The translations under genes were made by a program, and so were the position numbers. Source: Octopus vulgaris (taxonomy: Eukaryota). From it: 64,000 nt of DNA. The notes below the pieces were generated by a model that was not told the origin of the DNA, ran no database searches, and saw only the letters and a program-made list of their open reading frames with translations. Location of the stretch: positions 104,470,001 to 104,534,000 of the forward strand of contig OX597815.1 in NCBI GenBank assembly GCA_951406725.2, read 5' to 3'. Shown here piece after piece: positions 6,745-60,938 of the stretch (positions are counted from its first letter, which is position 1; the number at the start of each line of letters is the position of its first letter).

Positions 6745-7845
6745 TAGCACGGGTTGGATGGTTCGACCGGGGTCTGGGAAGCCAGAAGGCTGCACCAGGC
6801 TCCAGTCTGATCTGGCAGTGTTTCTACAGCTGGATGCCCTTCCTAACACCTACCACTCCGTGAGTGTAGTGGGTGCTTTTTATGTGCCACCAGCACAGGT
6901 GCCAGGGGAGGCTGGCAGCAGCCACGATCGGTTGGTGCTTTTTACGTGCCACCGGCACAGAAGCCAGTCAAGGCAGCGCTGGCATCGGCCACGTTCGGAT
7001 GGTGCTTTTTACGTGTCACCGGCACAGGTATCACAACTACTATTTCCATTTGATATTTATTTCAATGTTTATGTACTTGACTCAATAGGTCTCCTCAAGC
7101 ACAGCAGGTCATGTGCCACTGGCACAGAAGCCAGTCAAGGCAGCGCTGGCATCGGCCACGTTCAGATGGTGCTTCTTACATGCTGCCGGCACAGGTGTCG
7201 TAACTACAATTTTCATTTGATATTTATTTTGATATTGATGTACTTGACTCAATAGGTTTCCTCAAGCACAGCAGGTCACTCTACGATCCAAGGTAAGCAC
7301 AGCAGGTCGTTCTGCAATCCAAGGTACTTTGAATGGGCTGGGGCTATGTGAAACTGGTGCAGGAAGCAGTCCGGGTCTTTGCAGTCACAGCATATCTCCA
7401 GAGATCTCGGTTCTTCGTCATTGTCTCTGTGAAGCCCAACGCTCGGAGGTCATGCTTGACTACCTCATCCCATGTCTTCCTGGGTCTACCTTTCCCTTGA
7501 TACCTTCAACTGTTTGGGAGTGGCACTTCTTCACACATCTCTCCTCATCCATTTGCAGTACATGACCATACCATCGCAAGCGACTCTCTTGCACACCACA
7601 TCTGATGCTTCTTATGTCCAGCATTTCTCTCAGGGTGCTTACATGCTGTCGTGTGTGCACACTGACATTACACATCCAGCGGATCATGTTAGCTTCATTT
7701 CTTTCAAGTCTACACATGTCCTCTGCAGTCACAGCCCATGTTTCACTACCGTGAAGCATGACGGTTCGCACACATGCATCATACAATCTACCTTTCACTC
7801 TGAGCGAGAGACCCTTTGTCACCAGTAGGGGTAGGAGCTTTCTAA
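6745..7845 (-). mobile_element. 5'-truncated RTE LINE (ORF C-terminus plus 3'UTR with ~60-bp internal repeats)
   Basis: ORF 7460-7822 KGRLYDACVRTVMLHGSETW..RLRWYGHVLQM..; UTR shared with other copies. Confidence 0.9.
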
Positions 7846-7854
7846 TATATATAT

Positions 7855-8392
7855 ATATAAAATTTAATAAGGGTAGAAATTGATATTAATCAATTAAAAC
7901 CAGTGGCCTAGCATATTAAAAAAATTCGAAGATTAAAATATTTTTACATACAAAATTTAAAGGACTGACCACTAAAAGTAATGGTTAACATGCTAGATAT
8001 AGACGTCAAATCACTATTTTCCACAAAGAATATGTTCTCAAATAAAAATCCAGCATGAACCAAAGTATTAAAAATAAGCAAGACAAATGAAAATATACGA
8101 AATAAAAATGATTACCTATGTACCGATCAGTTTCGATTCTTATTATCCTCGCATGTGGATACCCGCAATCTCCTCAGCATAGTTTGTCATATAGAAATAC
8201 AATTTGCAAACTGATTGGTACATAGGTAATCATTTTTATTTCGTATATTTTCATTTGTCTTGCTTATTTTTAATACTTTGGTTCGTGCTGGATTTTTATT
8301 TGAGAACATATTCTTTGTGGAAAATAGCGATTTGACGTCTATATCTAGCATGTTGACCGTTCACTTTTAGTGGTCAGTCCTTTAAATTTTGT

Positions 8393-9554: not shown

Positions 9555-9990
9555 GGTACAGGACACCAAAAAAAAAAAAAAAACGTTGAACACAATGAGA
9601 AACGAAAACATTGAAAAGAAAAACATGGAAATTGACTTTTTTTTCAAACAATGAAAAAACAGAGTACAAGACATACAACACAAGGAATATTCCCTTTCTT
9701 CAGTTGTCCCTGTTTCAGCTACTCCGCGTTTCGAAGGTAAGGACAAGACGCGACTTCGTTGAAACAATCCTTCCCGCAAAGCAAATTAAATAAAATTTGG
9801 GATTTTTTGCGGAGGGGTAAAAGTGGTAACAAGAACAGGACAGTGAGAACAAAACAAGACCGTAAAATCAATACGAATAAAAACAGTAAAAGACAGGACA
9901 AGGAGAATAACACAGTAAAAACAAACGTTGAGGGTTGTTAAGTCGAGACAATGAAAAAATTATTTTGAACGCATTGAGAAGACGGCGACG
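9555..9990 (-). mobile_element. PLE-like 3' end carrying a rearranged hammerhead
   Basis: Homologous to 60625-60890 (cctgtt.ttgttacca..aaattttatt; 3' end cctgt.c.catatatgcat); minus-strand RRRLL..KIIF..TLN resembles a GIY-YIG ORF end. Confidence 0.7.
9692..9752 (-). ncRNA. Non-circularly permuted hammerhead ribozyme candidate
   Basis: cgcgTC-ttgtcc..cctt(c)-GAAA-cgcg..ggacaa-CTGAAGA-aagg; all three stems pair. Confidence 0.75.
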
Positions 9991-13846: not shown

Positions 13847-14300
13847 ATACTAAGTAATTAAGGGTTTAGCAACGATTTGCCTCACCACACACCGAGTTTA
13901 GAAATAGCAGTCAAAGAGTTATAGCTATTCCTTCTACTAAAAGGGAGATCTCAGTAAAACCACAGCACTTGAAAGGCAAACGCAGGCAAGAGAGAAAGAA
14001 ATGACGACAATCATACAATATTAAGTCACTGATTGTCGTCATTTCTTTCTCTCTTGCCTACGTTTGCCTTTCAAGTGCTGTGGTTTTACTGAGATCTCCC
14101 TTTTAGTAGAAGGAATAGCTATAACTCTTTGACTGCTATTTCTAAACTCGGTGTGTGGTGAGGCAAATCGTTGCTAAACCCTTAATTACTTAGTATTACT
14201 TAAACTTTCCTCGAATGGGGCTTTTACATGCCGAAATCTACTTGGTGAAATTAATGATTATTCCAAATTAATTGATTTCACCCTATATTATTACTGATAT
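13847..14300 (+). repeat. Near-perfect 167-bp inverted repeat (13847-14013 and 14030-14196) plus tail; PLE-like fold-back
   Basis: One mismatch between arms, 16-nt spacer; 3' end aattgatttcaccctatatta resembles the end of the 7855 element; (TA)n flanks. Confidence 0.85.
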
Positions 14301-14959: not shown

Positions 14960-15347
14960 AGGACTGTGCCGGTGGCACATAAGAGAACCATCCGAACGTG
15001 GCCGTTGCCAGCGCCACCCCGACTGGCTTCCGTGCCATTGGTACATAAAAAGCACCATCCGATCGTGGCCGTTGCCAGCCTCGCCTGGCCTCTGAGCCAG
15101 TGGCACGTAAAAAGCACCATCCGATCGTGGCTGTTTGCCAGCCTTGTCTGGCGCCTGTGCTGGTGCACGTAAAAAGCATCCACTACACTCATGGAGTGGT
15201 TGGCATTAGGAAGGGCATCCAGCCGTAGAAACATTGCCAGATCAGACTGGGCCTGGTGCAGCCTTCTGGCTTCCCAGACCCAAGTTGCACCGTCCAACCC
15301 ATGCCAGCATGGAAAGCAGACACTAAACGATGATGATGATGATGATA
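14960..15347 (+). mobile_element. RTE LINE 3'UTR with ~60-bp repeats and (GAT)n tail
   Basis: ggaagggcatccagccgtagaaac..gtccaacccatgccagcatggaaagcagac..(gat)n. Confidence 0.85.
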
Positions 15348-16778: not shown

Positions 16779-18085
16779 CATCATCATCATCATCATCATC
16801 ATCGTTTAACGTCCGCTTTCCATGCTAGCATGGGTTGGACGGTTCAACTGGGGTCTGGCAAGCCCGAAGGCTGCACCAGGCCAGTCAGATCTGGCAGTGT
16901 TTCTACAGCTGGATGCCCTTCCTAACGCCAACCACTCCGAGAGTGTAGTGGGTGATTTTATGTGCCACCGACACAGGTGCCAGACGAGGCTGGCAGACGG
17001 CCACGCTCGGATGGTGTTTTTTATGTGCCACCGACACAGGTGCCAGACGAGGCTGGCTGACGGCCACGCTCGGATGGTGTTTTCTTATGTGTCACCGACA
17101 CAGGTGCCAGACGGGGCTGGCGGACGGCCACGCTCGGATGGTGTTTGTTACGTGCCCTCAGCACGGAGGCCAGTCGTTGCGGTACTGGCTACGATCACGT
17201 TCGGATGGTTTTCTTATGTGCCACTGGCACTGGTACCACAAAGATACAAATTCCCTTGATGTTCATCTATTTTGATTTGGTTCGATTTGATTTGATTTGA
17301 TTCGATTCGATTCTCACTTGCCTCAACAGGTCTTCACAAGTGTCACAAGAAGGAAGGTATGCACAGGTGGACTGACTACGTCCCAGGTAGGGGCCACGGA
17401 TTATGGCTTCACTAGTCTTGCCGGGTCTTCTCACACACAGCATACTTCCATAGGTCTCGGTCTCTAGTCATTTCCATGGTGAGACCTAACGTCCGAAGGT
17501 CGTGCTTCACCACTTCGTCCCAGGTTTTCCTGGGTCTACCTCTTCCACGGGTTCCCTCAACTGCTAGGGATTGGCACTTTCTCACACACCTATCTTCATC
17601 CATTCTCGCCACATGACCATATCAGCGCAATCGTCTCTCTTGCACACAACAACTGATGCTTCTTAGGTACAACATTTCTCTCAAGGTACTAACGCTCTGT
17701 CGAGTAAGTACACTGACATTACACATCCATCGGAGCATACTGGCTTCGTTCCTCACAAGCTTACGCATGTCCTCAGCAGTCACGGCCCATGTTTCACTGC
17801 CATGTAGCATAGCTGTTCGTACACATGCATCATACAGTCTGCCTTTTACTCTGAGCGAGAGGCCTTTAGTCACCAGCAGAGGTAAGAGCTCCCTAAACTT
17901 TGCCCAGGCTATTCTTATTCTAGCAGTTACACTTTCAGCGCACCCGCCCCCACTACTGACTTGGTCACCTAGATAGCGGAAGCTATCAACTACTTCTAGT
18001 TTTTCCCCCCGGAAAGTGACGGAAGTTGTTTTCTGCAGATTTTCGGAGGTCAATGCTCCAGAGCATCTGCCACATACAAAAACTA
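16779..18085 (-). mobile_element. Youngest RTE LINE copy in the window, 5'-truncated, about 1.3 kb
   Basis: ORFs 17622-18053 and 17412-17612 (EVVDSFRYLGD..AWAKFRELLP..GSETW..GRGRPRKTW), CpG-rich, 3'UTR with ~60-bp tandem units, (GAT)n tail. Confidence 0.95.
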
Positions 18086-18830: not shown

Positions 18831-18874
<44 letters not shown>

Positions 18875-18876
<2 letters not shown>

Positions 18877-19230
18877 GGGACAAGAACACGAAACATCCAG
18901 ACAACTAGGTGATACAAAAAGGGACAACAAAACATCCAGATGGATGATACAAAAAAACAAGGATGGGTCATTCAAAGCTTTCTATCCTCAGTCAAGAACC
19001 AGATCATCCTTGCAATTTTGGCTGATTAATCTTGAGATTGCTCCAATCTGGCCTGCCCCAAGGAAAGACTAAGTTAAGAGCTTTATATTCCTTGGAAGAA
19101 AGCATCGAATATATACAAAAACAAGGACGGAAAAAAAGACAATGTTAGACAAATATAAATACAATAAGAATAATAATAACAGGACATAACAACAGGTGTC
19201 TTTCGACTGGGGATGAATTGAATTCATCCC
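18875..19230 (-). mobile_element. PLE-like 3' end carrying a rearranged hammerhead (third stem set)
   Basis: 3' terminus gtgttcttgtccca-(ta)n resembles the termini at 9555 and 60890. Confidence 0.65.
18981..19041 (-). ncRNA. Non-circularly permuted hammerhead candidate (GAAA decayed to AAAA)
   Basis: gcaaTC-tcaaga..gcc-AAAA-ttgc..tcttga-CTGAGGA; stems I and III perfect. Confidence 0.65.
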
Positions 19231-60143: not shown

Positions 60144-60502
60144 TGTGAAGGTGGCTCATCTGAAAAAGCAATAGGTATGAATAAAAATTGATAGTGTAGA
60201 GAGATCATTTTATTTGTGGCATCTACCCTCTCCTCCCCGATCCATTTTGTGAAGTGGTTAGTGATTGGAAGGACATCATTAATACAGTAGATTAGGTAAA
60301 ATAAAGGAGTGATCTTCCAACAGATTTCTAACCTCATATCTATAATTTTCTGAGCAACTCTCTTAATGGTTATATCTTAAATGCCTGATTTCTATCCAAC
60401 TTTCTACACATGCACCTTTCTCTCTGTTACGAAAACAAAAGAGTTGAATGCATAAACAACGAGAGAAACAAATGGAAAACAGAACAAGTAACATAATGAA
60501 CG

Positions 60503-60565
60503 ATCCTTCATCAGTTGTCAGTTGTCCATCTACTCCTCATTTCCAGTATTGAATGACAATATGAG
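60503..60565 (-). ncRNA. Non-circularly permuted hammerhead candidate (left arm)
   Basis: ctcaTA-ttgtca..GAAA-tgag..tgacaa-CTGATGA; stems I and III perfect, stem II decayed. Confidence 0.65.
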
Positions 60566-60715
60566 TCTTTGAAGGGCAATGGCTCCCATAAACCAAAATA
60601 AAATAAAATACAGTGGAGGATGTATATCTCCTTTGACCTGTTTTTGTTACCAACTTTGACCTTCTGCAAATCCTAAATTTTATTTTGGTTTACGGGAGCA
60701 ACTGCCCTTCGAAGA

Positions 60716-60778
60716 CTCATATTGTTGTTCCATGCTCGAAATGAGGAATAGATGGGCAACTGACAACTGATGAAGGGT
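60716..60778 (+). ncRNA. Non-circularly permuted hammerhead candidate (right arm)
   Basis: ctcaTA-ttgttg..gctc-GAAA-tgag..tgacaa-CTGATGA-a-gggt. Confidence 0.7.
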
Positions 60779-60938
60779 CGTTCCTTACGTTACTTGTCCT
60801 GTTTTCCATTTGTTTCTCTCATTGTTTATGTATTCAACTCTTTTGTTTGCGTATTTCATGTTGTTTGCGGTTTGTGACGCCCTGTTCTCATATATGCATA
60901 TATATATATATGTGTGTATGTGTGTACATATACATATT

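Follow-up and report, generated by a model that had tools for sequence, protein, structure and literature searches.

A split-core RNA, probably of the non-circular hammerhead class, in abundant repeats and Naiad Penelope-like elements of Octopus vulgaris

Abundant repeats in the genome of Octopus vulgaris carry an RNA that, judged from its sequence, is a member of the non-circular hammerhead class opened between A9 and G10.1, where two extra helices are inserted and where the ends of the RNA leave. Its order from 5' to 3' is P4a, P0, IIa (with G10.1), J, IIIa-UH, cleavage site, Ia, linker, IIb-C-GAAA-IIIb, J', Ib-CUGAnGA and P4b. This split-core order is none of the six published hammerhead permutations because those take block C as a whole, and block C has been assumed not to be interruptible by more than 1-2 nt (PMC10085705). 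The intact members are likely to be self-cleaving hammerheads in the split-core fold. The window, which is the whole stretch of DNA analysed, has 64,000 nucleotides (GCA_951406725.2, contig OX597815.1, positions 104,470,001 to 104,534,000); its site is a decayed copy of an abundant repeat, and the intact relatives, not the window copy, are the finding.

The initial annotation had described hammerhead blocks in a rearranged, non-circular order at 18981-19041, and these blocks are found on the minus strand at 18985-19041. The feature is thus real, but half of the structure lies outside that interval, its full extent being 18969-19111 on the minus strand. A plus-strand reading was ruled out, the plus strand being without the core. 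Read on the minus strand from 19041 to 18985, the site block comes first, then the G block, then Ib with CUGAGGA, which gives the block order S-G-C. The site block is formed by IIIa (GCAA, 19038-19041), U16.1-C17 (19036-19037) and Ia (UCAAGA, 19030-19035), and the predicted scissile bond lies between 19036 and 19035, where the family has a truncation edge. The G block is formed by IIb (CAGCC, 19020-19024), which ends in C11.1, by AAAA in the place of GAAA (19016-19019) and by IIIb (UUGC, 19012-19015). Ib (UCUUGA, 18992-18997) precedes the core block CUGAGGA (C3-A9, 18985-18991), whose N7 takes all four bases across subfamilies. Stem I of 6 bp and stem III of 4 bp plus A15.1-U16.1 are perfectly paired. 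The remaining elements, also on the minus strand, are P4a, the 5' strand of the closing helix (19097-19111); the P0 hairpin, which ends directly before G10.1 (19058-19095); IIa, the upstream stem II strand that starts with G10.1 (19053-19057); the two strands of the J helix, which links stems I and II at their far ends as the 'I' helix does in types SGC and CSG (5' strand 19046-19052, 3' strand 18998-19004); and P4b, the 3' strand of the closing helix, located 1 nt after A9 (18969-18983).

The copy that holds this site (18875-19226, minus strand) is a 5'-truncated member of repeat family A with the ribozyme near its 3' end. A (TA)n run at 18831-18874, which is the insertion target, marks the 3' end of the element, and a short inverted duplication is located at the truncated 5' end (19210-19230). 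The ribozyme region of this copy differs from the family-A majority at 8 positions and fails the split-core descriptor. The loss of G12 (19019) had been attributed to CpG decay after a C, with the expectation that a family consensus would restore the G; the family does restore CGAAA, which is present in 88 of the first 100 genome matches listed, and CpG decay fits. The copy had been called a CpG-decay knockout, and this is supported for G12, but G12 is not the sole lesion, as a U-to-A change at 19054 also leaves a mismatch in stem II. The ribozyme of the window copy is probably dead. Both C11.1 and G12 decay as CpG in family-A copies: the dinucleotide is CG in 17, TG in 7 and CA in 5 of 29 homologues, and a hand count over the first 100 genome matches listed gave CG 88, CA 5, TG 5, TA 1 and CC 1. 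Substitutions affect 109 of 691 CpG positions, versus 436 of 10446 positions elsewhere.

Two other families in the window have the same architecture with an intact core, family B at 9692-9816 on the minus strand and family C at 60657-60780 on the plus strand, and a second family-C copy, inverted and 5'-truncated, lies beside the latter at 60428-60604 on the minus strand. Stems I and III of family A are unlike those of the 9.7-kb and 60.8-kb sites in sequence and yet pair perfectly, as had been noticed, so the three window variants covary; the ribozyme region of family A has only 7-nt BLAST matches to families B, C and N (the last described below). Families B and C are 73% alike, and the three variants, which had been taken as independent, therefore represent two independent lineages in the window. 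In families B and C the internal loop between J and stem III is GAA opposite AGUA, and family A has a purine-rich variant of it. We take this loop to resemble a loop-E/sarcin-ricin motif. The window also contains two canonical-order (C-G-S) hammerhead-like motifs of the Penelope-like element (PLE) type, at +41383 and -38662, both of which are decayed by eye and have a short, palindromic-like stem III. Long inverted repeats (MITE-like) are found at 8032-8309 and 13980-14063, with weak matches to microRNA families below the gathering score, and related tandem repeats (62-67 nt and 167 nt), which form one GC-richer family, occur at 6872-7278, 14964-15178 and 16956-17156.

The genome searched has 2.8 Gb in 227 contigs. 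The segment 18875-19226 gave 6,465 first-look candidates, with best matches of 87-93% among the 40 scored. Exact matches to a 23-nt pattern place family A at a minimum of 4,184 copies (at least), with none for the reversed pattern, so the window feature belongs to a repeat family and is not a chance occurrence; the corresponding patterns matched 1,015 times for family B and 757 times for family C, with controls of 0. The full family-A element is about 0.8 kb long, Penelope-like and non-coding, and longer copies of all three families are likewise about 0.8 kb and non-coding, in partial tandem and inverted arrangements. Their 5' ends are staggered in A, B and C, and a fixed 3' end at (TA)n is seen in A and C copies; in 26 of 30 family-A copies a TA run lies no more than 120 nt from the 3' end. 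Such arrangements and 5' truncation are known of Penelope-like elements (PMC8557442). The 5' parts of long A, B and C copies (loci L015, L049, L068, L077 and L086) show a splice-donor-like motif followed by a pyrimidine-rich tract, which resembles the 5'-UTR intron of PLEs, and the same loci have a common CACGTG box near the 5' end.

The architecture is defined by the origin of stem II. The initial annotation, as we read it, built stem II from the bases after CUGAnGA and expected it to be paired in a consensus. Stem II is paired, but its G10.1 strand is 5' of the cleavage site: IIa and IIb form 5-7 bp in 10 of 10 lineage representatives and in all 13 parsed copies, with GGCUG/CAGCC in A, GAAGG/CCUUC in B, GAGCA/UGCUC in C and GACAC/GUGUC in N. 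G10.1 is the first base of IIa, immediately 3' of the P0 hairpin, and the gap between P0 and IIa is 0-1 nt in 13 of 13 parsed copies. P4 is formed instead between the bases that follow A9 and those that precede P0. The segment after IIa pairs with the segment before Ib to form the J helix, which has 4-10 bp in 10 of 13 parsed copies, is weak (2-3 bp) in the other 3 and is 88% paired in family A. The distance from H17 to G12 is 13-16 nt in 10 of 10 representatives, which corresponds to a short linker between Ia and IIb.

An ordinary type-SGC hammerhead, with stem II formed by the bases right after CUGAnGA, has the right S-G-C order, short linker and helix joining stems I and II. In families B and C one inserted base allows such a contiguous stem II as a weak helix of 4 bp that includes 2 G-U pairs, and one B variant forms 6 bp. 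In the family-A majority, however, contiguous pairing gives 0, 0 and 1 bp with 0, 1 and 2 inserted bases, in family N it gives 0, 2 and 2 bp, and in C' at most 1 bp. For family A this outcome is one that the initial annotation had itself named as contrary to its model. The same bases form 4-10 bp with P4a, while the upstream strand supplies stem II in every parsed copy. Block C is thus not contiguous with the stem II strand, and the type-SGC reading is very improbable. By the definition of a hammerhead, CUGAnGA, GAAA and NUH are found in the family-A majority and in the lineage representatives, the window copy failing at G12. Stems I-III with G10.1-C11.1 and A15.1-U16.1 are found in 10 of 10 representatives, with stem II from the upstream strand, and it is the joining of A9 to the stem II strand with no more than 1-2 inserted bases that these RNAs lack.

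Conservation and covariation support the split-core pairing. G10.1-C11.1 and A15.1-U16.1 are fixed in all ten lineage representatives, which are related within four families and are not ten independent events, and the other four stem II positions pair in 10 of 10 with 2-4 types of Watson-Crick pair each. Stem I pairs in 10 of 10 at positions 1-3 and in 8-9 of 10 at positions 4-6 (5 of 60 cells unpaired), and stem III pairs in 10 of 10 at positions 2-4 (1 of 50 cells unpaired). Over 53 family-A copies, C3, U4, G5, A6, G8, A9, G10.1, U16.1 and H17 each differ in 2 copies or fewer, whereas N7 takes four states (G25/A3/C1 and A17/T6/C1). The majorities of A, B, C and N score 71-77, a value reached by 0 of 300 core-fixed shuffles per family (maxima 38-52). 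A descriptor, designed after the data had been seen, found 82 sites in 997,736 bases of collected loci, which are enriched for the families and partly overlap, versus 1 site in the reversed set and 0 in each of three block-shuffled sets. It is passed by 13 of 30 A, 4 of 30 B, 12 of 30 C and 13 of 30 N copies, and by 21 of 30 pattern-selected A copies.

The family-A covariation set has 54 sequences, which are the window copy and 53 of 59 loci, the six truncated loci having been dropped. In this set 92.2% of cells are paired, versus 29-48% when the strands are slid, and 19 cells are changed on both sides, versus 8.7 in shuffles (0 of 500). The number of pairs with double-sided change shows no excess (7 versus 6.4 in shuffles, 231 of 500), and neither stem I nor stem II of these 54 sequences has any such double-sided change. 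A chance arrangement of short motifs in an AT-rich repeat would fit with the 61 nt of the window site alone, which fold no better than shuffles (z -0.22 and +0.68), and with the outcome of the Rfam search, in which no hammerhead is among the 150 listed of 345 window matches and none reaches the gathering score in 6 loci; such a miss would be expected for a rearranged order. Chance is nevertheless effectively refuted by the pairing across lineages, and the shuffles, the descriptor controls, the core conservation and the junction edge described below also count against it, so its probability is next to nil.

Single-strand folds predicted for intact A copies contain P4 and P0 without reproducing the full model. 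The energies of nested model subsets are 8-18 kcal/mol higher than that of the predicted minimum-energy fold, with pseudoknots not counted, and z is below -2 in only 2 of 5 intact copies folded, the C and N windows cutting off part of P4. The short links that connect J with stem III also count against the model, as the ends to be bridged are far apart in the crystal structure. Two copies, in a tandem dimer or in trans, would ease this geometry, and the active ribozyme could form between copies as in minimal PLE hammerheads; metazoan PLE hammerheads work as dimers (PMC4209133), and the first 100 family-A matches listed include 6 pairs that share a strand and have a spacing of 680-810 bp. On the other hand, stem III is a real, non-palindromic helix of 4-5 bp in families A, C and N (that of B is palindromic), and P4 closes a single copy. 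Dimers as the active form have only a slim chance of being correct, and folding of the split-core RNA within one copy is favoured.

The 5' ends of truncated copies bear on cleavage. Of 30 pattern-selected A copies, four have as their first base the one that follows the predicted bond, but the pattern itself began there, and junctions with (TA)n were therefore searched for separately, for family A as (TA)n joined within 25 nt of IIb; such junction patterns cover starts only as far as IIb. In a hand tally of the first 100 matches listed, which represent 32 places, 29 junctions are at +1 to +11 (7 at +1 and 22 at +3 to +11), 3 are at -11 and none is at -1 to -10 (P ~4e-8 for a uniform distribution). 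TA microhomology favours +7 to +11; the same 4-mer occurs at -4 to -1, with 0 junctions, and at +9 to +12, with 14. In family B, 26 of 27 junctions are at +1 to +9, with 3 at +1, by a hand tally among the first 100 matches listed, a few of which may belong to other families. Copies that start at or just after the predicted cut suggest cleavage in vivo; most simply, the template of the RT would often have been an RNA with its end at the predicted cut.

The same edge could come from protein cutting or RT stalling on a conserved non-catalytic RNA of hammerhead descent, for example a binding site of the RT or endonuclease. This would agree with a split core that is without precedent in the literature searched and with the competing folds predicted. 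It is unlikely, as the catalytic letters are conserved against a background of variable stems and a variable N7, and as families A and B, which are unrelated, both have their edge at the predicted bond; stalling at a structure, moreover, would be expected at its 3' side.

As self-cleaving hammerheads, intact members would build the usual active site from stems I-III, with the domain of P0 and P4 looped out between A9 and G10.1. Metazoan PLE hammerheads have one extra base at the 9/10.1 junction (PMC4209133), which marks it as a tolerant position, and by analogy a large domain may be tolerated there; a tested hammerhead with a large insertion at A9/G10.1 was not found in the literature searched. 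Transcripts through partial tandems would fold each module, and the RNA would cut after UH as a monomer, tandem copies being cut to unit length. The products would stay paired through P4, stem II, J and stem III, which would favour re-ligation or circles, as re-ligation and circularisation have been proposed for PLE hammerheads (PMC4209133). On the 3' product the RT would come to a stop at the cut and would insert the cDNA at (TA)n, so that the resulting copies would start at +1 or shortly after it.

Naiads have been reported to be without canonical hammerheads and to have 'HHR_core' and 'HHR_half_core' motifs only, with core halves in their 3' UTRs that fit no descriptor, eight of them with the halves 35-50 nt apart (PMC8557442). 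The last 420-480 nt of 52 of 54 Naiad consensi (File S5 of PMC8557442) were parsed by eye, and 10 of the 52 have the split-core form. All helices are present in Chem-3, Amil, 2_Movir, EuTe, Obim and Ovul; the form is partial in Bfor (2-bp stem I), Aacu (mismatches), Plae (cut off) and Esco (weak). Six nematode 3' ends (1/2/3_Nbra, Hcon, Hpol and Asuum) are of type CSG, and the spider ends Ptep and Smim have other S-G-C forms. The nematode hammerheads are clean by eye: their block C is contiguous, and a helix connects stem I with stem II. In Naiad_Ptep and Naiad_Smim the S-G linker contains a hairpin and block C is flanked by a long helix, and ostracod Naiads (Dst), parsed in part, have a C block similar to that of the spiders. 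In the other 34 of 52, no permuted form was parsed by eye in these last 420-480 nt, a point in favour of the non-catalytic RNA considered above. Bivalve and hemichordate Naiad 3' ends show another recurring motif without hammerhead blocks, possibly another structured RNA.

In Octopus vulgaris, family N has 449 exact 16-nt matches to the published Naiad_Ovul 3' end (control 0) and parses into the same architecture. This 3' motif and a protein frame in the genome are nearly identical to the published Naiad_Ovul element. In 11 of 30 RT loci (2 of the 11 are partial matches, and two of the 30 loci overlap) family N follows a Naiad RT on the same strand, about 0.7-1.4 kb further 3', with the RT assigned by likeness to Naiad_Ovul/Obim, Pfam having given 0 families. 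Family N is the 3' UTR of a Naiad Penelope-like element, and the motif is the putative ribozyme in the 3' UTR of some members of the Naiad clade. Families A-C have the architecture of family N but share little or no sequence with it. The suggestion that the architecture predates the divergence of its lineages is supported, as the architecture is also present in Naiad 3' UTRs across phyla. Viral contigs gave 0 matches.

The enzyme that mobilised families A-C could be that of a Naiad or of a Neptune-like element. Copies of A-C have the (TA)n target, the 5' truncation and the partial tandem and inverted arrangements of Naiads, features that are common to other PLE clades and not diagnostic, and they have no ORF with an N-terminal GIY-YIG and a C-terminal RT; a search of 120 A/B/C loci, taken with 1.5-kb flanks, with two Naiad RT pieces as query gave no Naiad coding sequence. 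Naiad RT was recovered here as broken pieces, whereas intact 781-aa frames are present in a Neptune-like family, and either could be the mobiliser of A-C. Five Naiad endonuclease-motif loci are too broken for a visible 3' end. B and C copies abut Neptune-like ORF pieces head-to-head (loci L082 and L107) and, in L183, a piece of a Naiad. Naiad pieces also occur close to A-type copies, at L187 and L206, but there the two are separated by TA runs or other repeats. The joins near 1475 of L082 (family C) and at 1130/1131 of L107 (family B) are to 5'-truncated Neptune-like ORF pieces without a TA run, and may be chimeric insertions made by one RT. The Neptune-like family (L121:2245-4587:+; L122-L124, L126 and L140) has RT-GIY-YIG frames that are 98% alike, and its long tandem-repeat 3' UTR (near 5570 of L121) contains a canonical-order hammerhead-like motif with U3-A8. 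This young 781-aa GIY-YIG family was rejected as the source, its endonuclease being C-terminal and its 3' UTR motif being of canonical order and not split-core.

Among known systems, type-SGC hammerheads (HRIMA-1; Eckert et al. 2023, PMC10085705) share the full core, the S-G-C order, the short linker between stems I and II and the extra helix joining them. In these RNAs block C is contiguous with the stem II strand, whereas here that strand is at the 5' end and P0 and P4 lie at A9/G10.1; they are described from metatranscriptomes, with none in the genomes of known organisms, whereas here thousands of copies are present in an animal genome. Type-CSG hammerheads, described from two metagenomic sequences in the same paper, belong to the same non-circular class and would result from the split-core form if Ib-CUGAnGA were transferred to the 5' end and attached to IIa; unlike the split-core form, they have a contiguous block C and neither P0 nor P4. 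Minimal type-I PLE hammerheads (Cervera and de la Pena 2014, PMC4209133) are also on the sense strand near the 3' end or pLTR of the PLE, keep G10.1-C11.1 and have their insertion (1 nt) at 9/10.1, but they are of the circular class (C-G-S), with a tiny palindromic stem III and a need for dimers. Naiad PLEs (Craig et al. 2021, PMC8557442) share (TA)n targeting, 5' truncation and partial tandem and inverted copies, and A-C differ from them in being without an ORF in the copies seen.

Animal non-LTR retrozymes reportedly have type-I motifs in monomers of 150-400 nt. Defined by tandem arrays of short monomers with a type-I hammerhead, retrozymes do not include the elements described here, whose copies are dispersed, with at most partial tandems about 0.7-0.8 kb apart, and whose motif is not type I. 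Non-LTR retrozymes (bioRxiv 10.64898/2026.07.22.740005) are, like A-C, non-autonomous, hammerhead-bearing and PLE-related, but they form tandem arrays, whereas A-C are dispersed copies of about 0.8 kb with a permuted motif; the main text of that preprint has no mention of SGC, octopus or molluscs.

The split-core order is apparently undescribed, being hammerhead-like and yet failing the contiguity test of all named types. The literature searched has no permuted hammerheads in Naiads or animals and no split-core form, though supplements or subscription papers could hold one, and within it the terms SGC and CSG occur in PMC10085705 only. That paper gives the six block orders as the full set and places non-circular hammerheads in metatranscriptomes, metagenomes and one doubtful bacterial case; 'variants with additional helices' are cited in PMC13725137.

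Taken together, it is likely that animal genomes hold thousands of non-circular hammerheads of active type, and that the split-core form is a Naiad 3'-UTR ribozyme found from ctenophores and cnidarians to an acanthocephalan, a crustacean and cephalopods, with type CSG in nematodes and other S-G-C forms in spiders. One retroelement clade would then have reshuffled the strand order of the ribozyme several times, and the octopus insertions would record cleavage in vivo. The split-core form breaks a C block that was assumed to be indivisible, and it does so at high copy number in an animal. It could explain both why Naiads were reported to be without hammerheads and what their puzzling half-core motifs are (PMC8557442), and the related forms within one clade could show how permutations evolve. 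The sharp onset of 5' ends at the predicted bond points to cleaved RNA as a real template of retrotransposition, and the role of PLE hammerheads becomes testable.
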